This document shows, in pieces, positions 1 to 9,773 of a stretch of 9,773 nucleotides of DNA. The translations under genes were made by a program, and so were the position numbers. This stretch comes from an uncultured archaeon (GTDB lineage Archaea > Iainarchaeota > Iainarchaeia > Iainarchaeales > CSSED10-239), in NCBI GenBank assembly GCA_964586355.1, contig CAZPGO010000014.1, forward strand, positions 1 through 9,773, in the 5' to 3' direction. Each line of letters begins with the position of its first letter. Within the stretch, counting starts at the first letter, position 1. The notes below the pieces were generated by a model. That model searched no databases and was not told the origin of the DNA. It saw only the letters and a list, made by a program, of their open reading frames with translations.

Positions 1-145
1 ACAGATTTTGATCTAAAATTAATAAATTTCATAAGAATCAATTCCAATATAAATTAAAGAAGTAATAAGATAAAAAGATTTAAATAGTTAACTAAAAAAC
101 AAATTTTAATTAACAAAAAAATAGATTATAATAAAACTCAGCTTA

Positions 146-1465
146 TTACTTAACAAATTTATCAACAAACATTGCAGCAGTAAGATCTCCAGTAACATTA
201 ACTGCTGTTCTAAACATATCTACTATTCTATCAACACCTAATATCAGAGCAATACCTGTTAATGGGACACCAACAGTTATAAGAGCCATAGATAATATTA
301 CTAAACCAACTCCTGGGGTTCCTGGAGTTCCAATAGAAGCACCAACAATTGTTATTATTAAAAAAATTAATGCAAAAATACTTATTTCAATACTAAAAAC
401 CTGTGCTAAAAATATGGTTGCAATTGCTTGATAAAGGGCTGTACCATCCATATTAATTGTTGCGCCAATTGGAATAATAAATTTTGCTATTGAGAGTCTA
501 ACTTTTAATTTTTCTTCAGCAGTCTTTATAGATAATGGCATAACAACAGCTGAACTTGATGTGGAAAATGCCAATAGCTGTACATCTCTTATTTTCTTTA
601 AAAAATCTAAAGGTTTCTTTTTTAAAATTAAAGAAATTATTAGCATATAAAATAAAATTAATAAAAACAAACCAAACAAAACACACAAAACATAAACACC
701 AAGTCCTTTGAGGGTACTTATTCCAAACTGACTAGTAACTTTAGTCATTAGACCAAACACAGCAATTGGTGCTAAGACCATTGCATATTTTACAATCATT
801 ATACAAACATCTTGTAATGAACTTAAAACATCTATTAATGGCTTGGATTGTTTTTTTTTAAGATTTATTAAGGCAATACCAAAGATTATAGTAAAAATAA
901 TAATAGGAAGCATTTCTCCACTAATAACAGAGTTTAAAACATTTGTTGGAAATAGACCAGTTATTAATGAGGGTATTTTTTCTAATGTTGGCAACTCTTG
1001 AACATTGGTAGATATTTCCTCACTAGACAATTGTAAAACTGTTTGAGAGTCTACAAACTGGCCAGGATTAAATGTGTTTACTACTAATAGCCCTATTACT
1101 ATTGAGGCTATAGTAGTTATTATAAAATAGATTACGATTGTAATACCTGTTTTTTTTAATTGATTAATATTGCCACAAGAGACCATTCCTTTTATTATGG
1201 AGGCAAAGATTAGTGGTATTACTATCATTTGTATTAGGCTTAAAAAAACATACCCAGGTAGTGCAATCCATTCGGTAATAACAGACGAAGTGTCTGAAGG
1301 AAAAACGCCTATTGTTGGACCTAATAAAAACCCAAAAAACACTCCTAAAAATAAAGCAATTAAAACTTTTAACCAAAGTTTTTTTTTTATTAATGATCCA
1401 AGTTCTTCTGCTTTTTTTTTTAAAGTATTATTTTTAATAAAATTTTTTTTTTTTTTAATAACCAT
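146..1465 (-). CDS. Dicarboxylate/amino acid:cation symporter (DAACS, GltPh/SLC1 family), probably an aspartate/glutamate transporter
   Basis: 439-aa ORF with an ATG start and a multi-TM profile. It carries the family motifs STSSSAVVMP (HP1 serine motif), NMDGTALYQ (TM7 NMDGT) and GTPGTPGVG (HP2). The TM8 motif VDRIVDMFRTAVNVTGD has the same spacing as GltPh D390/D394/R397/T398/N401/D405. About 20 aa of Lys-rich N-terminal extension precede the first TM, so the true start could lie further downstream. Confidence 0.93.
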   Translation of the reverse strand: MVIKKKKNFIKNNTLKKKAEELGSLIKKKLWLKVLIALFLGVFFGFLLGPTIGVFPSDTSSVITEWIALPGYVFLSLIQMIVIPLIFASIIKGMVSCGNINQLKKTGITIVIYFIITTIASIVIGLLVVNTFNPGQFVDSQTVLQLSSEEISTNVQELPTLEKIPSLITGLFPTNVLNSVISGEMLPIIIFTIIFGIALINLKKKQSKPLIDVLSSLQDVCIMIVKYAMVLAPIAVFGLMTKVTSQFGISTLKGLGVYVLCVLFGLFLLILFYMLIISLILKKKPLDFLKKIRDVQLLAFSTSSSAVVMPLSIKTAEEKLKVRLSIAKFIIPIGATINMDGTALYQAIATIFLAQVFSIEISIFALIFLIITIVGASIGTPGTPGVGLVILSMALITVGVPLTGIALILGVDRIVDMFRTAVNVTGDLTAAMFVDKFVK

Positions 1466-1536
1466 ATAAGATCTTTTTTAGATGCTTTAATAAAAAGTAG
1501 TTGTAAAAGTTTTAAATGGTTTTTTATTTTATTTTT

Positions 1537-1554
1537 AAAAAAAACATTAAAAAA
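1537..1554 (-). terminator. Oligo-T tracts (T6 then T8 on the minus strand) immediately 3' of the tRNA; candidate archaeal terminator
   Basis: On the plus strand, A6 at 1549-1554 and A8 at 1537-1544 begin 3 nt after the tRNA discriminator base. T-runs are common in this AT-rich DNA, so specificity is low. Confidence 0.3.
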
Positions 1555-1557
1555 GGA

Positions 1558-1630
1558 TGCCTCGAGAGAGATTTGAACTCTCGATCCCCAGATTATGAGT
1601 CTGGTGTTATAACCGCTAAACCACCGAGGC
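1558..1630 (-). tRNA. tRNA with anticodon CAU: elongator tRNA-Met or, if C34 is modified, tRNA-Ile2
   Basis: The reverse complement is GCCTCGG TG GTTT AGCGGTTA TAAC A CCAGA CTCATAA TCTGG GGATC GAGAG TTCAAAT CTCTC TCGAGGC A. This folds into a 73-nt cloverleaf with a 7-bp acceptor stem (one G-U), a TTCAAAT T-loop and anticodon loop CT-CAT-AA. There is no intron and no encoded CCA. G1:C72 and the absence of three G-C pairs in the anticodon stem argue against an initiator tRNA. Confidence 0.9.
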
Positions 1631-1764
1631 AAATATCAAAGATCTATAAAAGAAAATTGATTCTATAATAATTAAGCATAAAAATATATATAAATGATTT
1701 GATTTTTTTAAAGATAGATCTTTAGACTTTTTATAAAAAAAACCTTAGCTTATTACATTTTAAA

Positions 1765-2442
1765 TTATATTCTTGATTTAATAGAAATCTTTTGACTTTT
1801 AGAATCATTTTTGTCAACAATAAAAATAACATCAGCAGATCCTAAAAAAACACCTGTCTCTAAAACACCTGGTATATTTTTTACAGAGTACTCAAAGTCT
1901 TCTAAAGTTATATTTTTATCTAATGTTATTCTTGCAAGATAATGACCTGTTTCTGTCTTTATAATGTTACCGTCAATATCTAAAACAACTCTTGCAAGAC
2001 CATAGCTTTGTAGATTTAAAACGGTTCTTTCCCAAGCAAAACTACTAATCTCCACAGAAATATCTTTTGAGATTTTGTCTACAACATCTGCTTTATCACA
2101 AATAGTTATTAGACTCAAAGCTGATTGAGAGATCATTTTATCTCTTATAAAAGATCTAGTTTCTTTTTTTATAAAATTATAATCAAAGTCTACTTGATCT
2201 ACAAACTCAATACCAACATCAATTTCTCTATCATTTAAAGAAACAACCTTTTGCCCAAGATTTGCTAACTGAGCTGCTTGCCGTGAGGTTGTTGCAACAA
2301 AAAAAACCTCTTTTTTTTTAAATAAAAAATATTTGACTAGTTCATCAACAAATTCTGTATCATATCTACTAGTACCAACAGCTATGATATTTCCATTACT
2401 TATATATTCATCAAATTCTTTTATTATTGCTTGTATATTCAT
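1765..2442 (-). CDS. rpiA: Ribose-5-phosphate isomerase A-like protein (divergent)
   Basis: 225-aa ORF with an ATG start. By eye it is collinear with archaeal RpiA. IIAVGTSRYD sits where GLGTGST is expected, VDQVD where DGAD(E) is expected, and IKKETRSFIRDK where KGGGG...(Q)EK is expected. The C-terminal IPGVLETGVF matches the diagnostic GVVE(T/N)G(L/I)F motif. Confidence 0.65.
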   Translation of the reverse strand: MNIQAIIKEFDEYISNGNIIAVGTSRYDTEFVDELVKYFLFKKKEVFFVATTSRQAAQLANLGQKVVSLNDREIDVGIEFVDQVDFDYNFIKKETRSFIRDKMISQSALSLITICDKADVVDKISKDISVEISSFAWERTVLNLQSYGLARVVLDIDGNIIKTETGHYLARITLDKNITLEDFEYSVKNIPGVLETGVFLGSADVIFIVDKNDSKSQKISIKSRI

Positions 2443-2463
2443 AATTTATCTTATTTAATATAA

Positions 2464-2471
2464 TTTATAAA
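2464..2471. promoter_or_regulatory. Palindromic TATA-like box TTTATAAA, candidate bidirectional promoter element
   Basis: TTTATAAA is its own reverse complement. Its centre lies about 26 nt from the proposed sRNA 5' end (2494, + strand) and about 26 nt from the A of the rpiA-like ATG (2442, - strand), consistent with a leaderless mRNA. TATA-like strings are frequent in this composition. Confidence 0.3.
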
Positions 2472-2493
2472 CATTACCTATTATTATATATTT

Positions 2494-2559
2494 TACACAA
2501 TGATGATAATTGAACACCTGCTGAATAAAATATGATGATAGATGGGCGGGCTGAGTGTA
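2494..2559 (+). ncRNA. Archaeal box C/D sRNA (2'-O-methylation guide) with two guide regions
   Basis: Layout: uacac-a-AUGAUGA (C, 2500-2506), a 14-nt spacer (2507-2520), CUGA (D', 2521-2524), 7 nt, AUGAUGA (C', 2532-2538), a 12-nt spacer (2539-2550), CUGA (D, 2551-2554), then gugua. A 5-bp terminal stem pairs 2494-2498 with 2555-2559. All four boxes match consensus perfectly. The element sits in an ORF-free gap, has a TATA-like box about 26 nt upstream and a T7 run 4 nt downstream. The D' spacer is complementary to the 23S gene in this window. Confidence 0.8.
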
Positions 2560-2754
2560 TTATTTTTTTAATTTTTCAAATTCTAATTTTGTTAATCTTT
2601 TATTTAACAAATCTAACTTAGAATCCATAACTTTACTACTTACTGATTCTCCAATTGGCAATTTTCTAATTCTTTGTTTTTCTAAAGTTATTAAAAATAT
2701 ATTACCTAATAAAAAAACAAAAATTAAAATTAATAATATTAATAATAACACCAT
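2560..2754 (-). CDS. Small membrane-anchored protein (N-terminal TM helix plus charged coiled-coil-like tail), hypothetical
   Basis: 64-aa ORF with an ATG start 4 nt after the stop of the upstream ORF (2761). A GTGA Shine-Dalgarno-like element lies 6-9 nt upstream. The sequence is a hydrophobic MVLLLILLILIFVFLLGNIFLI segment followed by a K/E/L-rich tail. It is short, so the coding status is not certain. Confidence 0.55.
   Translation of the reverse strand: MVLLLILLILIFVFLLGNIFLITLEKQRIRKLPIGESVSSKVMDSKLDLLNKRLTKLEFEKLKK
2563..2569 (+). terminator. T7 run directly after the C/D sRNA; candidate terminator
   Basis: TTTTTTT starts 4 nt after the sRNA terminal stem. It lies inside the last codons of the convergent minus-strand ORF 2560-2754. 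Confidence 0.3.
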
Positions 2755-2760
2755 ATTAAA

Positions 2761-3510
2761 TCACACTAAAAAGAAATGATCTTTTCTTTTTTCTAATATT
2801 ATTGCTTCTTCTTTTAAAATTTCTAAAACTGTTTTTAGAAGTTCTTTATCTTTATTTATTTTAAAACTAATTTCATCTAAAGTAAATGAAATAGTTTGCT
2901 GAGACATAATCTTATCTTTAATATCATTAAACAAATTCAAGTCTACAACATATGTGTTTCCATCAAAAGATTTAATACCTTTTATCTTACCAGAACTAAC
3001 CTTTTCTTCAAACTCTTGCTTAAAGTCTTGTAAATCTTTGTTGTTTTTTAAAATTGCAAAATTGTTTTTATTAAAATTATCCACAACTTCTGAATTTATT
3101 GTTGTTTGTTTAAATTTATTGTTTATTGTATAAAAACTGTTCTTATACTTATCAGATAGCTTACATAAAACAATCTCTTTATTTTTTACCATTTCAGTAA
3201 ACACTAAAAGATCTTCTTTGCTTAATAGTTTTTCAAAAGAGCCTTGTAATTTTTCTTTTACTGAAAGATTTTTATTATTTAAAAATTTTAGTATTTTTTC
3301 TTTAGATCCTAAATTCTCATTTTTAGTCTGCTCTTTTTCTTTTGGTAAATCTCTTTTTTCTTTAGAGTCGTTATCCTCAATCACTAGGGCAACAACATTC
3401 TCAGCAATAGGAACTACTTTTAAAGATTTAAAAATATACTTATCAATAAGCAGATCTTCATTTTTTTCTAGATTTAAAAAATAAACATTGTTTTTTTTTA
3501 CAATTTTCAT
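2761..3510 (-). CDS. Hypothetical protein with winged-helix-like segments
   Basis: 249-aa ORF with an ATG start and an AAGGT element about 10 nt upstream, starting 11 nt after the PIN gene stop. The C-terminal FTLDEISFKINKDKELLKTVLEILKEEAIILEKRKDHFFLV and the central ILKFLNNKNLSVKEKLQGSFEKLLSKEDLLVFTEMVKNKEIVL look like wHTH units. I recognise no catalytic motif. Confidence 0.75.
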   Translation of the reverse strand: MKIVKKNNVYFLNLEKNEDLLIDKYIFKSLKVVPIAENVVALVIEDNDSKEKRDLPKEKEQTKNENLGSKEKILKFLNNKNLSVKEKLQGSFEKLLSKEDLLVFTEMVKNKEIVLCKLSDKYKNSFYTINNKFKQTTINSEVVDNFNKNNFAILKNNKDLQDFKQEFEEKVSSGKIKGIKSFDGNTYVVDLNLFNDIKDKIMSQQTISFTLDEISFKINKDKELLKTVLEILKEEAIILEKRKDHFFLV

Positions 3511-3521
3511 ATAGAGTAACC

Positions 3522-4190
3522 TTACACTCTTTTTATATATTCATCAATCTCTTCAAAAGAGACTGCACAACCATTAAATTTTAGGGCATAAAGTGCTGAT
3601 TTAAGATATTCTTTTTTTAACATATATGCTGGTATTGTTTTTGATTCATAAGCATGAGAAAATAGATCAACAGATCTAATGACACTAACATTTCCGATCT
3701 CTTCTTTAAATTTATCATATTTCTCTGCATTAAAAATAATTTTTTTATTTCTATATTTTCTTTTTAAAACCTCTAGCAACCCTTCAGGAGACTCTACTAA
3801 CATTCTTGTTGTTCTCTCGTCAATTGCTAAACAATCGGCATTAGTTAAACCTAATAAAGCTAAACATTCTGCTTCTCCAAAATCAACAAGATGTAAAGGA
3901 TTATTATTTATTGAAAAAATACTGTTTGATATATTTAATATTCTATTTGTTTTTTCATTAAGCTCTTTTGATCCACCAACAACAGTAAAAACAAATTCGT
4001 CTATGTATTCTTCTATTCTAAGTGAACTTAGTTTAAATTTCATATTGTTTCTTACTCTATCCACACATTCATATTTTACTCCAGTAGTGATGATTAATTC
4101 ACCTATACTTTTTTTTATCTCTGGCATTAATGGTAAAAAACAGGTTTGTGAAAACCCAATTAATATTCCTGAATCTAATACAATTTTCAT
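3522..4190 (-). CDS. PIN-domain protein (COG2405/DUF3368-like signature) with an insertion and a C-terminal extension
   Basis: 222-aa ORF with an ATG start preceded by AAAGGAATAAATA. The N-terminal strand MKIVLDSGILIGF contains the first PIN Asp. It is followed by ELIITTGVKYECV, then DFGEAECLALLGLTNADCLAIDERTTR, which is the GEAE...(D/E)(D/E)..R pattern of this PIN subgroup. The family assignment is by eye only. Confidence 0.6.
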   Translation of the reverse strand: MKIVLDSGILIGFSQTCFLPLMPEIKKSIGELIITTGVKYECVDRVRNNMKFKLSSLRIEEYIDEFVFTVVGGSKELNEKTNRILNISNSIFSINNNPLHLVDFGEAECLALLGLTNADCLAIDERTTRMLVESPEGLLEVLKRKYRNKKIIFNAEKYDKFKEEIGNVSVIRSVDLFSHAYESKTIPAYMLKKEYLKSALYALKFNGCAVSFEEIDEYIKRV

Positions 4191-4203
4191 TATTTATTCC
4201 TTT

Positions 4204-5019
4204 TTATTCTTTTTTTAAAGCTGTGTGTAAATAATTTACTCTTTCTTTAATACTTTTTATTTTTTTATCTTCATCAGATATTTTTGTGGTTCCAACCATT
4301 TCCATAACATTCTCTTTTTGCGCTGATAAAAGATTTGTAGCTTGTGATAAAGACATTCCATAAGCATAAGCACTTGAGGCTAATTTTGTTCTTGCGTTAT
4401 CTACTAGATTATGAATGAAATGGCCTAATGTTCTATCTGTGTTTTGAATATTATTTTGAACTTTTTGTATTGCTTTTCTATACTCACCCATCTTTTTTTC
4501 TCTAAAACAACTACTTGCATAAACTAGATCATTTGTAACAGTACTAGAAAAAGAGTTCCATTTAGGATTATATAATATATGTTTTTTGGACATTAGTTTT
4601 CTAAATGAATAAGTAATAATTGTTAGCTCAATTAGATCTTTATTGTTCTTCATTACTGCTTCTTCTAAAAGCTTTTCATCAAGTCTATGAAGCTTGTCCA
4701 AATTTCTTTTATTAAATTCATTTATTATTTCTGTAATAATATCTGAATAGTCTTCTAAATTTAGATTTAAATTAGTGGCATTATTATTTTTGTTAAAACT
4801 ATTGTTTTGAGTATTGCGAAAACTGTTATTTTGAGTGTTACGAAAACTGTTGTTTTGAGTATTATTTCTATTAAATCTATTTCTATTAGGATTATTTGAT
4901 GTTGATTTATTAGATCTTATAGCTTTGACAATACCAGAATTTTCTAAAAAAGAATTGGGTCCTGATTTGTCTTTTTTTGCATTAACATAGTTTTTTCCTG
5001 ATCTATTATTATTACTCAT
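4204..5019 (-). CDS. Hypothetical protein: basic N/Q-rich low-complexity N-terminus with 3 x NTQNNSFR repeats, and a helical C-terminal domain ending in an HTH-like segment
   Basis: The tracked ORF runs to 5049, but that start is TTG. The ATG at 5019 is preceded by AAAGGAATAAAAAA, the same RBS-like motif found in front of the PIN gene, so I prefer it (271 aa). The stop lies 13 nt upstream of the PIN gene start. The C-terminal ARTKLASSAYAYGMSLSQATNLLS fits the Y..G.SL..A..L pattern of UPF0175-type HTH proteins. That similarity is weak. Confidence 0.7.
   Translation of the reverse strand: MSNNNRSGKNYVNAKKDKSGPNSFLENSGIVKAIRSNKSTSNNPNRNRFNRNNTQNNSFRNTQNNSFRNTQNNSFNKNNNATNLNLNLEDYSDIITEIINEFNKRNLDKLHRLDEKLLEEAVMKNNKDLIELTIITYSFRKLMSKKHILYNPKWNSFSSTVTNDLVYASSCFREKKMGEYRKAIQKVQNNIQNTDRTLGHFIHNLVDNARTKLASSAYAYGMSLSQATNLLSAQKENVMEMVGTTKISDEDKKIKSIKERVNYLHTALKKE
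4795..4866 (-). repeat. Three tandem 24-bp in-frame repeats encoding NTQNNSFR
   Basis: On the plus strand the units are aaaactattgttttgagtattgcg, aaaactgttattttgagtgttacg and aaaactgttgttttgagtattatt, at 4795-4818, 4819-4842 and 4843-4866. They differ by a few substitutions. Confidence 0.9.
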
Positions 5020-5180
5020 TTTTTTATTCCTTTTTTTGTTCTTATACAAAAATATTTATTTAATAGTATTTAAAATACTAACTATCTATTCTATTAATAT
5101 TATAAAACCAAATATATATATATTTGTTTATTATATATTTATATAACTTAAACTTAATAAAAAGAGATGTGAAATAAAAT

Positions 5181-5684
5181 ATGGGACTGTATGATGAAAA
5201 ACTTCAAGGGCTAGGTTTTAAAAAAAATAAAAAACTTATATTAATTGGTGTAAGTGCTTTACTAGTATTAATACTAATAATATATTTAATATCAGCAATA
5301 AGCTGGTCAGATTTATTTAAAGGGAGTAATATATCTGCAAAGTTTTCTAATAACCCTTATAATTTAAGCAAACATAATGATCTACAATTAAAAGTAACTA
5401 TAAAAAACGATAGTGAAATTGATGCTGAAAATGCTGTTATTACTATTTATCCAATAGAAGAAGAGACTTTCTTTTTAAATTGTAAAAATTATAGTGTAGA
5501 ACAAAATAGAGTAGTTATTCCTATACTTTCTAAGAATAGTACCAGAATAATTGAATGTGATGTTTTAATTGCTCCAAACTTATCTAACATAGAGGTATTA
5601 GAAGGATCATATAGTTTTGATATTGTTTATAATTTAAATAATATAGAACATAAAAAAAGAACATCATTAAGTGTTAAAAAATAA
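5181..5684 (+). CDS. Single-pass membrane/surface protein with a beta-rich ectodomain (CARDB-like impression)
   Basis: 167-aa ORF with an ATG start preceded by GAGATGTGA. It has an N-terminal TM segment LILIGVSALLVLILIIYLISAI followed by a beta-strand-like segment LKVTIKNDSEIDAENAVITIY. The ectodomain contains six N-X-S/T sequons. Confidence 0.75.
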   Translation: MGLYDEKLQGLGFKKNKKLILIGVSALLVLILIIYLISAISWSDLFKGSNISAKFSNNPYNLSKHNDLQLKVTIKNDSEIDAENAVITIYPIEEETFFLNCKNYSVEQNRVVIPILSKNSTRIIECDVLIAPNLSNIEVLEGSYSFDIVYNLNNIEHKKRTSLSVKK

Positions 5685-5700
5685 AATAGGAAAAGATAAG

Positions 5701-6453
5701 ATGATAGAAAGTTTATGTGCTGGGTTTAATTTTTTAAAAAAAAGAAATACATTAATAATTGCACCTGTTTATTTTGTTTTGATGATCTTAAGTATTACTT
5801 TTTACAATATAATACAAAATGTTTTATTTGTAACTGGTTTTTTTGAGATAACCATACCCAAACCAATATTTTATCCTATATTTCTAAATTCTATGTTTGG
5901 AATTTATTTTTGGTTAGCTATTTTGGGATTGTTTATAATAATGTTCTCATTTAGTTTTATATACTATAATATCTCAAAAACAAACTCAGATAAAGAAAAT
6001 AAAGAAAAACAAAGGGATGGACTAAAAAAGTGTTTTTTTATAACATTAATTGGATTTCTTACTTTTTTTATAATTACTTTTTTAGGGCTTTTATTATTAT
6101 CTTATCTTAATTTAATAACATTTATCTTATTTGTTTTTTTGTTAATTATTGCATTTTTGTTAGTGCTGCTATTTTATTTAACAGTAATATACTCTGGATT
6201 AAATAAATTAACTGTTAAAAAAGCATTTAATAGTGCTTGGTATCTATTAAAAAACAGATTTTGGTTAACTGTTGCTTTTTGTATATTACTTTACTTAGTA
6301 ATATTTATAATTTTGTTTATTTTCTCCATACTTGTTGAAAGAATATTTTTCTTTGATTATACAGCTGCAATGATTTTTGGAGTATTAAGTGTATTTTTAT
6401 CTGTTTTTTATTTTGTTAATTCTTTATCTATTTTTGCAAAAAAATTTATTTAA
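5701..6453 (+). CDS. Polytopic integral membrane protein, hypothetical
   Basis: The tracked start at 5671 is GTG and overlaps the upstream gene. The ATG at 5701 is preceded by ATAGGAAAAGATAAG (AGGA) and is preferred (250 aa). The protein has about 6 hydrophobic helices. Two similar amphipathic segments each precede a helix bundle (LCAGFNFLKKRNTL and VKKAFNSAWYLLKNRFWL), hinting at an internal duplication. Confidence 0.8.
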   Translation: MIESLCAGFNFLKKRNTLIIAPVYFVLMILSITFYNIIQNVLFVTGFFEITIPKPIFYPIFLNSMFGIYFWLAILGLFIIMFSFSFIYYNISKTNSDKENKEKQRDGLKKCFFITLIGFLTFFIITFLGLLLLSYLNLITFILFVFLLIIAFLLVLLFYLTVIYSGLNKLTVKKAFNSAWYLLKNRFWLTVAFCILLYLVIFIILFIFSILVERIFFFDYTAAMIFGVLSVFLSVFYFVNSLSIFAKKFI

Positions 6454-6469
6454 TTTTTTTTTATTTTTT
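6454..6469 (+). terminator. T9-A-T6 tract directly after the membrane-protein stop codon; candidate terminator
   Basis: The T tract begins at the first base after the TAA stop at 6451-6453. Confidence 0.35.
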
Positions 6470-6536
6470 AAAAAAGAGATCTAATTTCTATAAATAGATA
6501 AAAATTATTTTTTTAAGAAAAAGAAAAAATTTTTAC

Positions 6537-6544
6537 AAAAAAAA
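6537..6544 (-). terminator. U8 tract about 11 nt 3' of the rRNA processing helix; candidate rRNA transcript terminator
   Basis: An A8 run on the plus strand at 6537-6544 lies downstream, in rRNA sense, of helix strand 6555-6583. Confidence 0.3.
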
Positions 6545-6554
6545 TTACAAAGAA

Positions 6555-6583
6555 AAGAGAATTGGTATTAGTTTATTGCACTA
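6555..6583 (-). other. 3' (trailer) strand of the pre-23S processing helix
   Basis: Trailer RNA UAGUGC-AAU-AAACUAAUACCAAUUCUC(UU) pairs with leader RNA (AG)GAGAGUUGGUAUUAGUUU-GCACUA encoded at 9693-9718. This gives 18-20 bp, a 3-nt AAU bulge in the trailer, then 6 bp. Confidence 0.85.
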
Positions 6584-6638
6584 TTTTTGTAAGATATAAC
6601 CACTAACTGCGTACTTATTTCTAAAATCAAATTTCTTA

Positions 6639-9637
6639 CCTTTGATTTTAACTCGGACCCTTAGTATCAGAAAACTGAAATGGTCGTTTTGACACTTCCA
6701 TCTTACATTACTGACCTATCAAACCGGTCTTCTACCGGAGTCCTCGTTCTATATCTCTATAGAAATGGCTGTCTCGTCTTAGGGACTGCTTCGAGCTTAG
6801 ATGCTTTCAGCTCTTATCAGTTAAAGCGTAGCTACCCGACAGTGCCTTGTCAGACAATCGGTACACCAGAGACTTCGACACACCGTTCCTCTCGTACTAA
6901 ATGTATCTTTCCTTCAGACAGCCTGCGCTGCCAATAGATAGGAACCAAACTGACTCGCATCGTTCTTAACCCAGCTAACGTACGGCTTTAATGAGTGAAC
7001 ACCTCCACCCTTGGCTATTTGTGCCCAGCCAGGATGCCGTGAGCCGACAGCGAGGTAGCAAACCGCGGGGTCGATGTGAACTCTTACCCGCGACAACCCA
7101 GTTACCCCCAGGGTAAATTTACTGTCAGACTAGGCCCCCACTAATAGGGACACTAGCGTTCGCTAGACCCAAGTTTCCTTCCTGCGTTTCGTGCTTTGAG
7201 AAACACAGTTAAGCATGCTTTTGGTCTTGTCCTCTACAGCAGATTTCTGACCTGCTTGAGCATACCTTTGGACACCCCTGATATTCTTTCAGGGGTGTAC
7301 CGCCCCAGTCAAACTACCTGATCAAATGTTGTCCGCTTACAAAGAAGCGTTGAGTCATGGTTTTCATACTAGATGGTGTTACATTGTTGTCTATCTAGCC
7401 CCTAGCGAGACTAGCATCAGCGACTCCCATCTACACTCTATAGTATAAAAAACATAACAACATCAGACTGTAGTAAATCTCCATGGGGTCTTATCCTCCC
7501 ATTGGCAGTTCGTGGCGTATTCACCACGTGTGCAAGTTCACTAGGTTTAAATTAGGGACAGCGGAAATCTCGTTACTTCCTTGGTGCAAGCCGACAATTA
7601 ATCGGCAAGGTATTACGCTACCATGAGAGCCTCAGAGTTAGGCCCGCTCTTTACCAGCGCTTGGATCAGTTGAACCTGATATTCACGTACTAGCAGTGAG
7701 CAGAGGTCAGTGACTATACACACCGTTTCCGGCTAGCAGTCACCTGTGTTTTTGCTAAACAGTCGGACTTCCCTAGTTACTAAGACTTACAGTTTACTCA
7801 ACCGTAAGCACCCCTTATACCTAAGATACAGGGCTAATATTGCCGAATTCCCTTAATTTAATTATCCTATTACGCCTTAGCTTACTCAGCTAGAGACACC
7901 TTTCTCGGTTCTTGGTACGAGCAATAAACCACATTATAGTTCTCTTTTCAAGGGCTCTTGGCCTCGATAAAAGATTTCTCCCATTTGTATCTTTAACCTA
8001 TTTCTCATCATTATGATCCTCCATAGGTCTATAATACTTAGATGTGCAGACAAGCACACTCCACCTTGCCAAAAGCGTTAAAAACTATACTTGCGTTACC
8101 ACACGTGATTTATTGGTACAGGAATATGAACCTGTTTCCCTTTCGATGTTTGCCGTATTACGGGTCATCTTAGGATCGACTTACCCTTAGCTAAAGATTA
8201 GTGCTAAGGAACCCTTGCCCCTTCGGCGGAAATGATTCTCACATTTCTTTGATGTTACTATCGCGAGGATCCATATCTTTGGCAGATCCACAGGATATTA
8301 CTACCCTACTTCTGCTCTACCAAAGCACCTATCTATCAGATCACAAATTGCTTGTGCTCTGTGATATCGGTGGTTAGTTTAGCCCCGTTAATTTTCAGCG
8401 CATCTGTCCTAGATTGGTGAGCTATTACGCACTCTTTAAAGGATGGCTGCTTCTGAGCCAACCTCCCAATTGTCTGAGGACAAAAACTACTTTCCAGTTA
8501 ACACTTAACTAACACTTAAGGACCTTAATCACAGTCTGGGTTTTTTCCCTCTCGGAGAAGCAGCTTACCCGCCCCCCCCGACTCCAGCCTTCAACGACAA
8601 TAATACATTCGGAGTTTGACAAGAAAGCCGAAAATTTCTTCCCGATACTTTCTAATCAGTATCTCTACCATATTATTAGTCTCCAGCCAGGCTATCCTAA
8701 GGGATATCTCGATAGGAACCCGCTATCACCAGATTCGATTACTCTCTCAGTACTATTCCCAAGTCACACAATCAGTTAGACTAGAACTGCTTCGGACCTC
8801 CAGCAACCAGTCGGTCGCCTTCATCCTGCTCAGGAATTTATCATCTGGTTTCGGGTCATTTTCTAGTGACTAAAGGCACAGTTAATACCTCTTCCCTGAA
8901 TTAAAAATCTGCGGAAAATCGGTTTCCCTACGACACCATGATGTAACATCACTTCGTCTTGCCACTAAAAAATACTCCCTCGCCCGTGCTTCGTGACGGA
9001 TAGTGTAACCCTGTTCCCATAACACTTGCTTTTGCAGTTACCCACAATCACTCATGTGCTATGATCAAAACTTTCAGGCCACACCCGAACAGTAGCCAAT
9101 TAATTTCAAGTGCTTGAATTCACCCTCCGTTAGGAGAACTTTTCAACTTTCCCTCTCGGTACTCATTCGCTATCGGTCTTGTAGTATATTTAGGATTAGC
9201 AGTAAGTGCCTGCCATACTTCTGACGCGATATCCAACGCGCCATACTCTTGGTACTTAAAAATCTTCTCAAATATCTTATACCTACGGGACTATCACCCT
9301 CTTTGGTTAAGCTTTCCAGAAAAATTCGGTTTTGAATTCAAGAAGTAAATAAGCCAAAACACCCCACATGTCTTTTATATTACTATAAAAGATTCGGTTT
9401 GTCCTTTGCCGTCTTCGGTCGACCCTACTACCGGCATCACTATTGTTTTCTTTTCCTCTAGGTACTAAGATGCTTCAATTCCCTAGGTTCCCTTCCAGAC
9501 TTTAACATCTGGATAATTCGAGCATCTTGGGATCAAAGGCTGCATGCGCCTACCCCAAGCTTATCGCAGCTTGCCACGCTCTTCATCGGTCTACAAGCCA
9601 AGTTATCCATTAATTGGCTCTATATAAAATCAAAGTT
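6639..9637 (-). rRNA. rrl: 23S (LSU) rRNA, archaeal type, apparently complete (about 3.0 kb; ends +/- 15 nt)
   Basis: The reverse complement contains several conserved LSU elements. The 5' domain has GAUGAAGAGCGUGGCAAGCUGCGAUAAGC (9559-9587). The GTPase-centre region has GCAGCCAUCCUUUAAAGAGUGCGUAAUAGCUCAC (about 8417-8450). The PTC has GGGGGUAACUGG (about 7097-7109) and CCUCGCUGUCGGCUC (7041-7055). The A-loop has GGUGUUCAC (about 6995-7003). The sarcin-ricin loop is AGUACGAGAGGAAC (6885-6898), and GCUGAAAGCAUCUAAG lies at 6796-6811. Helix 1 pairs 9625-9635 with 6640-6650. GC content is visibly much higher than in the flanks. Confidence 0.97.
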
Positions 9638-9692
9638 TTGTGTAAGAAATCATAAATTTTAGAATAATTACCTTAATGATTACTTTTACACG

Positions 9693-9718
9693 TAGTGCAA
9701 ACTAATACCAACTCTCTC
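9693..9718 (-). other. 5' (leader) strand of the pre-23S processing helix
   Basis: Reverse-complementary to 6555-6583 (see that feature). It lies about 55 nt upstream of the mature 5' end. Confidence 0.85.
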
Positions 9719-9773
9719 ATCCCGTAAATATGTTTTGTAAAAAACGGTCAAATTCCTTCTAAAAAAGTTTAGA

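Follow-up and report, generated by a model that had tools for sequence, protein, structure and literature searches.

Ribose methylation of ribosomal RNA (rRNA) at C1402 of 16S and U2552 of 23S rRNA (Escherichia coli numbering) has been mapped in E. coli, yeast, human, plants and the archaeon Pyrococcus abyssi, in which the two modifications are Cm1369 and Um2669 (PMC11542601, Table 2). In E. coli these are the work of stand-alone enzymes, RsmI making Cm1402 and RlmE/FtsJ making Um2552, and a homologue of RlmE occurs in haloarchaea (PMC11542601). U2552 is a predicted target of small RNAs (sRNAs) in five of seven archaea studied, while guide predictions for helix 44 are sparse in archaea (PMC4644070). 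Cm1402 has been detected in Nanoarchaeum equitans, for which no sRNA candidate was found, and Iho sR11 of Ignicoccus hospitalis, a species in which methylation of C1402 is below 50%, is the only guide proposed (PMC5389701). Here, we focus on an element at positions 2494–2559 of the plus strand in a 9,773-nucleotide (nt) stretch of DNA from an uncultured archaeon of the Iainarchaeota (assembly GCA_964586355.1, contig CAZPGO010000014.1, positions 1–9,773), referred to below as the window. In all probability this element is a gene, transcribed on its own, for a box C/D sRNA of archaeal type that carries two rRNA guides, one directed at each of these nucleotides.

As far as found, the searched literature describes no C/D sRNA in the Iainarchaeota/Diapherotrites, and the element was previously unannotated. 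A preliminary description of this DNA had read it as a box C/D sRNA facing two methylation sites conserved across the domains of life. The sites are indeed mapped in bacteria, eukaryotes and P. abyssi (PMC11542601), and the reading is supported by invariant boxes and guides, a covarying terminal stem, a suitably positioned promoter-like box and a gene neighbourhood that has been kept. The remark that gene callers would miss the element also holds, since the programs applied to these contigs place no feature at this site.

Read directly on the plus strand, the element consists of a 5-bp stem, AUGAUGA, a 14-nt spacer, CUGA, a 7-nt loop, AUGAUGA, a 12-nt spacer, CUGA and the closing half of the stem (table 1). 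The C, D′, C′ and D boxes, spacers, loop and stem set out in the preliminary description are borne out base for base. The same is true of the 117-nt gap between minus-strand genes in which they were placed, which runs from the start codon of RpiA (2442) to the stop codon of a 64-amino-acid (aa) open reading frame (ORF; 2560), and of the TATA-like box and downstream run of seven T residues, both of which can be read in the sequence. The D spacer has the 12 nt reported earlier and is 12 nt long in 21/21 sequences, while the D′ spacer, rightly called slightly long, varies from 13 to 15 nt across homologues; its length is the sole departure from the canonical layout. The four-box pattern, formulated as RTGATGA-N10–16-CTGA-N3–12-RTGATGA-N10–16-CTGA, occurs once in the window when both strands are searched and in none of 3000 dinucleotide-preserving shuffles, and its analytic expectation is 2.5e-6 before a stem is required.

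Table 1. Coordinates of the sRNA locus, its flanking signals and its predicted large-subunit target in the window, with example loci of the wider C1402-guide family (last row, coordinates within each locus).
Feature	Position	Strand	Remarks
TATA-like box TTTATAAA	2464–2471	+	Putative sRNA promoter; centre ~27 nt 5′ of terminal stem
Conserved A/T-rich stretch TATATATTT	2485–2493	+	Directly 5′ of sRNA; possibly a promoter-proximal element
Terminal stem, 5′ half, UACAC	2494–2498	+	Perfect complement of 2555–2559
Unpaired A	2499	+	G in three homologues; never in stem (alignment A2, column 8)
Box C, AUGAUGA	2500–2506	+	Exact consensus; invariant in 21/21 homologues
D′ guide spacer, 14 nt	2507–2520	+	2511–2519 (UGAACACCU) pairs with LSU A-loop; A2516 is the fifth nt upstream of D′
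Box D′, CUGA	2521–2524	+	Direct reading; invariant in homologues
D′–C′ loop, 7 nt	2525–2531	+	Variable in sequence and length among homologues
Box C′, AUGAUGA	2532–2538	+	Direct reading; invariant in homologues
D guide spacer, 12 nt	2539–2550	+	2541–2549 (GAUGGGCGG) complementary to 16S 1399–1407; G2546 is the fifth nt upstream of D, opposite C1402
Box D, CUGA	2551–2554	+	Direct reading; invariant in homologues
Terminal stem, 3′ half, GUGUA	2555–2559	+	Abuts stop codon of convergent 64-aa ORF at 2560
T7 run	2563–2569	+	Plausible oligo-T termination signal
Predicted D′ guide target AGGUGUUCA, helix 92/A-loop	6996–7004	−	U at window 7001 = LSU nt 2634 = E. coli U2552 equivalent
Example C1402-guide loci	L002 4118–4147; L017 6634–6664; L030 6268–6297; L079 515–544		Complete C/D sRNAs

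Homologues were sought in GTDB species-representative genomes with a pattern that ran from the D′ box through the loop and the C′ box to box D, any guide in the C1402 register being allowed ahead of the last. At least 119 loci (numbered L) were found, at least 10 of which also carry the D′ guide and box C of the window, both of which lie outside the pattern; the source genome is absent from the genome-scan matches listed, and counts by lineage are lower bounds. A metagenome scan added 22 further loci and, together with the genome loci, gave at least 21 distinct sequences, while the DNA of the window itself, which belongs to a 54-kb metagenome contig of the Joint Genome Institute (JGI; Ga0643560_000128), recurs as identical copies in two further metagenome samples. 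One homologue lies in the closed 839,632-bp genome (CP045477.1) of Ca. Forterrea multitransposorum, a member of the Iainarchaeota/Diapherotrites within the DPANN archaea (PMC5905446). The gene order RpiA, sRNA, orf249 and orf222 is kept in 10/10 genome loci tested.

An alignment of relatives had been suggested in the preliminary description as a check on box conservation and guide covariation. The boxes prove invariant in 21 homologues, and the guide follows changes in the A-loop, as set out below. All 44 box and guide positions are identical, compared with a DNA identity of 65–87% between the RpiA genes and that of the window, and about 22 of the positions that never change, box C and the entire D′ guide among them, lie outside the genome-scan pattern. 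Boxes and guides are under strong purifying selection across the Iainarchaeota. Within the D′ spacer, TGAACACCTG is invariant in all homologues and the unpaired 5′ part varies by 1–2 nt. The D′–C′ loop ranges from 4 to 9 nt and is free to vary in sequence, as would be expected of a K-loop linker without sequence constraint.

The terminal stem is maintained by compensation. In 21/21 sequences the inner three pairs can be made, and at four pairs both partners have changed; the covariation value is 0.504 against 0.200 in shuffles, none of 500 shuffles reaches it, and slid registers all score far lower. Compensatory forms include ACAC/GUGU, GGC/GCC and AGC/GCU, and a single GGC/GCU intermediate (L126) allows a G·U pair on the plus strand only. 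Upstream, an A/T box of the TTTAWAA type (TTTAAAA or TTTATAA) occupies the same columns in 11/11 sequences of alignment A1, where T12 and A15 never vary and A16 and A17 hardly do. Columns A34, T35, A36, T37 and T39 of the same alignment, which correspond to TATATATTT, are near-invariant as well. The TATA box of archaea usually lies near −26/−27, and we infer that the TATA-like box is the promoter of the sRNA gene. Runs of at least four T residues are found within ~20 nt downstream in most homologues, and this feature is only weakly conserved because some homologues lack it. The overall pattern of conservation is that of a C/D sRNA gene and not that of a promoter or a chance motif.

Both guides were scanned for rRNA sites without bias, E. 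coli rrsH and rrlH serving for numbering by pairwise alignment. In the window's own large-subunit (LSU) rRNA, the best site for the D′ guide is nt 2630–2643 (window 6992–7005, minus strand), where guide positions 2–10 form nine contiguous Watson–Crick pairs and position 5 falls on the equivalent of U2552. For helix 92 the Rfam archaeal LSU consensus reads cgGGcUGUUCgCCcg and this lineage GGAGGUGUUCACUCA: of the nine target positions, three are peculiar to the lineage, and at each of them the D′ guide matches the lineage version. The guide makes nine contiguous pairs with the lineage A-loop but only five with the archaeal consensus or with E. coli, and the identical A-loop sequence is present on four sRNA-carrying contigs (the window, L045, L117 from Forterrea and L138). 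This co-variation of guide and target is strong evidence that the A-loop, the target put forward in the preliminary description, is a real one; the LSU rRNA of the window itself bears it out, with U2552 at N+5 and the lineage substitutions tracked, and we regard it as a firm prediction. The A-loop stem is itself unusual in sequence: window 6996–7005 (minus strand) belongs to a stem GGAGG...ACUCA, where the archaeal consensus is cgGGc...gCCcg. Rfam marks a non-canonical G–A closing pair in it, and the same sequence is found in four Iainarchaeota contigs.

The best site for the D guide on E. coli 16S rRNA is 1398–1409. Guide positions 2–10 form eight Watson–Crick pairs and one G·U pair, at G1405, and the fifth position lies opposite C1402. 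The check was made on E. coli 16S because the 16S gene of the host is unlinked to its LSU gene. A YchF/Obg-like GTPase gene, and not 16S, stands upstream of the LSU 5′ end (window 6641–9634; L121 1–2808), from which it follows that the rRNA genes are unlinked in the host genome; no 16S motif was found in the 146 fetched loci. The region 1392–1407 of 16S rRNA is near-universally conserved, and 1392–1406 is a universal primer site. For a C/D sRNA with the guides proposed here, CCGCCCGUC would be expected at 1399–1407 of the host 16S, and C1402 is very likely the target of the D guide.

The D guide is found well beyond the Iainarchaeota. Its core, GAYGGGCGG, recurs in at least 84 archaeal C/D elements from many lineages. 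Among the archaeal matches listed, 84/87 have a box C (at most one mismatch) 9–16 nt upstream, and 75 of those 84 also show, in the canonical register, a stem that is 3 bp or longer, neither feature having been part of the search. The window element has all features of these C1402 guides, namely GAYGGGCGGN abutting box D, C′ and D′ boxes, box C and the stem. Bacterial matches served as a control. Among the 32 listed, seven have a box C with one mismatch, within a single repetitive coding motif and with a stem length of 0, and none has a consensus box C. These bacterial matches (Bradyrhizobium L006, L008, L024 and others; Roseateles/Mitsuaria L048, L050, L073 and others) were rejected as coincidences in conserved coding sequence that are without a consensus box C; the seven with a one-mismatch box C are of the Roseateles type. 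By label, the archaeal family includes the Methanofastidiosa, the Theionarchaea and the Thermoplasmatota (DHVE2, Aciduliprofundum and Methanomassiliicoccales), together with single metagenome-assembled genomes (MAGs) labelled Halobacteria, Methanomicrobia and Thaumarchaeota. Among DPANN groups, it is present in Iainarchaeota, Undinarchaeota, Aenigmatarchaeota, Woesearchaeota, Micrarchaeota and Nanobdellati.

Which D′ guide accompanies it depends on the lineage, and several of these partners point into the 23S peptidyl-transferase region. The Undinarchaeota-type partner TCCGACATCGAT (L017, L072, L086, L093 and L118) makes 10/10 pairs with E. coli 2500–2509 and places position 5 on A2503, while the Methanofastidiosa-type partner TATCGACAGCGT (L002, L005, L013 and others) pairs with the 2501–2508 equivalent of the window LSU and places position 5 on the equivalent of U2504. 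The C1402 guide thus recurs in combination with a guide for the peptidyl-transferase centre (PTC)/A-site region, and partners that change with lineage fit the varied pairing of guides that has been described for archaeal sRNAs (PMC7994747).

The element would act by the mechanism of canonical C/D ribonucleoproteins (RNPs). The 3-nt bulge of a kink-turn would consist of A2499, A2500 and U2501, followed by tandem G·A pairs, a U·U pair and a G–C pair; this geometry, the 3-nt bulge with its G·A and U·U pairs, is carried over from the canonical box C/D K-turn. L7Ae would bind the terminal C/D kink-turn and the internal C′/D′ K-loop, and a dimer of Nop5 would span both sites and position two molecules of fibrillarin. 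Each guide would form a duplex of ~9 bp with rRNA, and the 2′-OH that fibrillarin would methylate is that of the rRNA nucleotide opposite guide position 5, counted upstream from D′ or D. This predicts Um at the equivalent of U2552 in the A-loop (window 7001) and Cm at 16S C1402 in the P-site/decoding centre. Fibrillarin (COG1889) and Nop5 (COG1498) are among the 38 single-copy markers used to estimate archaeal genome completeness, DPANN included (PMC9258230), and fibrillarin is present in more than 90% of archaeal taxa (PMC8481954). No match was obtained by tblastn with queries that included fibrillarin and L7Ae in 1.03 Mb of loci, a result that is uninformative because these loci are small parts of their genomes; the share covered is ~20 kb for the source contig (54 kb) and 8 kb for the closed genome of Ca. 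Forterrea.

Three other explanations deserve to be weighed. The motif could be a chance cluster in A/T-rich intergenic DNA, or a promoter or terminator of a flanking gene from which no RNA is made. The gap between the RpiA start and the end of orf64 must hold regulatory signals, and the minimum free energy (MFE) fold of the single strand (−8.6 kcal/mol, z = −0.41) is no more stable than those of shuffles, with the guides weakly paired together. The MFE fold was rejected as a meaningful structure on these grounds, and a weak intramolecular fold is what would be expected of a C/D sRNA, because its guides must stay unpaired. The absence of the four-box motif from every shuffle speaks against chance, as does the finding that the guides are G+C-rich islands complementary to functional centres of rRNA; boxes and guides that do not vary, together with a loop free to change and a stem kept by compensation, make up the pattern of a C/D sRNA and not of a promoter. 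Together, shuffles, stem covariation and conservation effectively refute this explanation, which we consider barely credible.

The element could also be a genuine C/D sRNA of which only one guide is productive, or one that acts mainly as a chaperone of rRNA folding with little methylation at the D′ target. A D′ spacer of 13–15 nt in 21/21 homologues, never 12, would be in keeping with this, and chaperone roles and non-productive guide interactions have been discussed for archaeal sRNAs (PMC4644070; PMC7994747). Yet the invariant 10-nt 3′ part of the D′ guide tracks changes in the A-loop and sets U2552 exactly at position 5, a precision of register that mere binding would not need, and the extra length of the spacer is confined to its unpaired 5′ part; we judge this version improbable. 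Less probable still is that the D guide aims at another site in rRNA, transfer RNA (tRNA) or messenger RNA (mRNA), or that the host 16S differs in this region. A weaker match to the D guide exists in the window LSU (nt 1585–1596), but it has a mismatch at guide position 6, beside the would-be target, and a G·U pair at position 3. Retention of GAYGGGCGG in at least 84 archaeal elements from more than 10 lineages implies that the target must be invariant across Archaea; 16S 1399–1407 lies within and just 3′ of the universal 1392–1406 primer site, and both N. equitans and P. abyssi have a mapped Cm1402.

Several points nonetheless weigh against a dual-guide C/D sRNA gene. At gathering thresholds, Rfam gives no match on the element, the only hits in the window being the LSU rRNA and one tRNA. 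The top weak match for the window is sR2 (28.1 bits, E = 1.3e-4, gathering score 42) and the highest score of any homologue is 30.7 bits against a gathering score of 45. The class architecture is present, yet the element stays below the gathering score of every curated Rfam C/D family; those families are guide-specific, and it scores low because their models carry other guides. The scan with C/D covariance models advocated in the preliminary description was thus favourable in part: C/D-box families on the plus strand dominate the weak matches (14 of 17 in a sensitive scan of 2400–2650), while none reaches its gathering score. Homology to Rfam sR2 through similarity of the D guide (GAUGGCGGCU) was considered and rejected, since the complement mismatches 16S 1399–1407. 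As homologues were found with patterns derived from the element, invariance at the pattern positions is in part a matter of ascertainment. The decoding-centre target proposed in the preliminary description fits as C1402, on the basis of E. coli 16S and the universality of 1392–1407 and to that extent only. Signals for expression of the sRNA are those of the sequence, the TATA-like box and the T7 run. Finally, the D′ spacer has 13–15 nt where 12 is canonical, and an over-long spacer can lower efficiency in reconstituted archaeal RNPs.

The window is A/T-rich and carries a complete archaeal LSU rRNA gene (6641–9634, minus strand), a tRNA-Met gene (1555–1631, minus strand) and protein genes that include an SDF-family transporter and RpiA (ribose-5-phosphate isomerase A; 1765–2442, minus strand). 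At least three genomes (the window, L045 and L117) have the sRNA ~4 kb away from the 3′ end of the LSU gene. The TTTATAAA box at 2464–2471 is its own reverse complement, and the RpiA start codon (2442) on one side and the 5′ end of the sRNA (2494) on the other are each ~26 nt away from it. This arrangement suggests that one TATA box serves both directions and that the RpiA mRNA is leaderless. The spacing between RpiA and the sRNA is unconserved in relatives (57 to >120 nt), so a shared TATA box may be peculiar to the compact genome of the source.

On the other side of the element, the 64-aa ORF (2560–2754, minus strand) has a hydrophobic N-terminus and is called as a gene on the JGI contigs, and tblastn gives weak matches to it at syntenic places in L045, L021 and L100; the T7 run overlaps its last codons. 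A plus-strand ORF of 74 aa at 2555–2779, dismissed as spurious in the preliminary description, overlaps this likely real gene and, given the gene calls and syntenic matches of the latter, is most likely spurious indeed.

Two further observations concern the rRNA and tRNA genes. A2503 is a highly conserved nucleotide of the peptidyl-transferase centre and the target of RlmN and Cfr, which makes it unusual that window 7050 (minus strand, LSU nt 2585), within CCTCGCTGTCGG (7046–7057), is C and not the A of E. coli position 2503. A conserved A also stands here in the archaeal consensus of Rfam (ACcUCGAUGUCgG), and C is found in the LSU of Ca. Forterrea (L117) as well. RF04354 (Plastid-ycf2 5′ untranslated region) matches the antisense strand of tRNA genes at or near its gathering score (L117 608–681, L064 2994–3067, L121 10813–10886 and others); these matches were rejected as genome features and regarded as a database artefact.

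In a sensitive Rfam scan of 68.7 kb from seven Iainarchaeota loci, all matches to C/D families fell on this element, and a relaxed motif scan of eleven loci gave no second C/D candidate. For the loci scanned, and short of a whole-genome count, this argues for a low density of C/D sRNAs, as in mesophiles. The host genome had been described as apparently reduced, which is reasonable because the closed Ca. Forterrea relative has a genome of 839,632 bp. A speculative extension, which we offer as a possibility with the odds against it, is that the C1402-guide RNA is among the most widely retained archaeal C/D sRNAs, with a 23S PTC/A-site guide as its recurrent partner, and that in 0.8-Mb Iainarchaeota it is the sole or nearly sole C/D sRNA, a minimal RNA-guided system retained for nothing but the two ribose methylations common to all domains of life and taking the place of RsmI and RlmE. 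If such genomes hold few other sRNAs, the element would point to the rRNA methylations that can least be spared.

With this element, a DPANN lineage in whose genomes nothing of the kind is annotated gains a well-supported gene for a non-coding RNA, and one small RNA would join two ribose methylations conserved in all three domains. It also supplies a clear predicted guide, spread over many archaeal lineages, for Cm1402, for which no guide was identified in N. equitans (PMC5389701). The co-variation at the A-loop offers a clean natural example of a guide that follows its target. The proposed mechanism is a textbook one, and understanding of C/D RNP function is unchanged.

The closest known systems are the archaeal C/D sRNAs that give the element its best Rfam matches: RF00095 (snoPyro_CD of Pyrococcus), sR1 (RF01152), sR2 (RF01139) and sR3 (RF01133). 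With these it shares a length of ~55–66 nt, the order RUGAUGA, CUGA, RUGAUGA and CUGA and a short terminal stem, together with the 12-nt D spacer, dual rRNA guides and the N+5 rule. It differs from the Rfam families in scoring at most 30.7 bits against thresholds of 36–45 and in its D′ spacer of 13–15 nt, and its host belongs to a mesophilic-type, A/T-rich DPANN lineage with small genomes.

The eukaryotic counterparts snR70 and SNORD43 (U43), which guide 18S Cm1639/Cm1703, and snR52, which guides 25S Um2921, act on nucleotides homologous to C1402 and U2552 (PMC11542601). In eukaryotes these are separate small nucleolar RNAs (snoRNAs) with degenerate C′ and D′ boxes, whereas here both guides sit on one symmetric sRNA of archaeal type; the plant-type snoU43 model RF01174 gives a very weak match (18.2 bits) over the element. 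RsmI and RlmE/FtsJ modify the same two nucleotides but are protein-only, site-specific enzymes without an RNA guide. I. hospitalis sR11 has the same predicted target, C1402 facing the D-box guide of a C/D sRNA. Compared with I. hospitalis and N. equitans, the C1402 guide described here is clear-cut and belongs to a family found in at least 84 archaeal MAGs. A precedent for one DPANN sRNA with one site per ribosomal subunit is sR20 of N. equitans (16S Gm1530 and 23S Cm1920; PMC5389701), from which the Iainarchaeota element differs in its target sites and its lineage.

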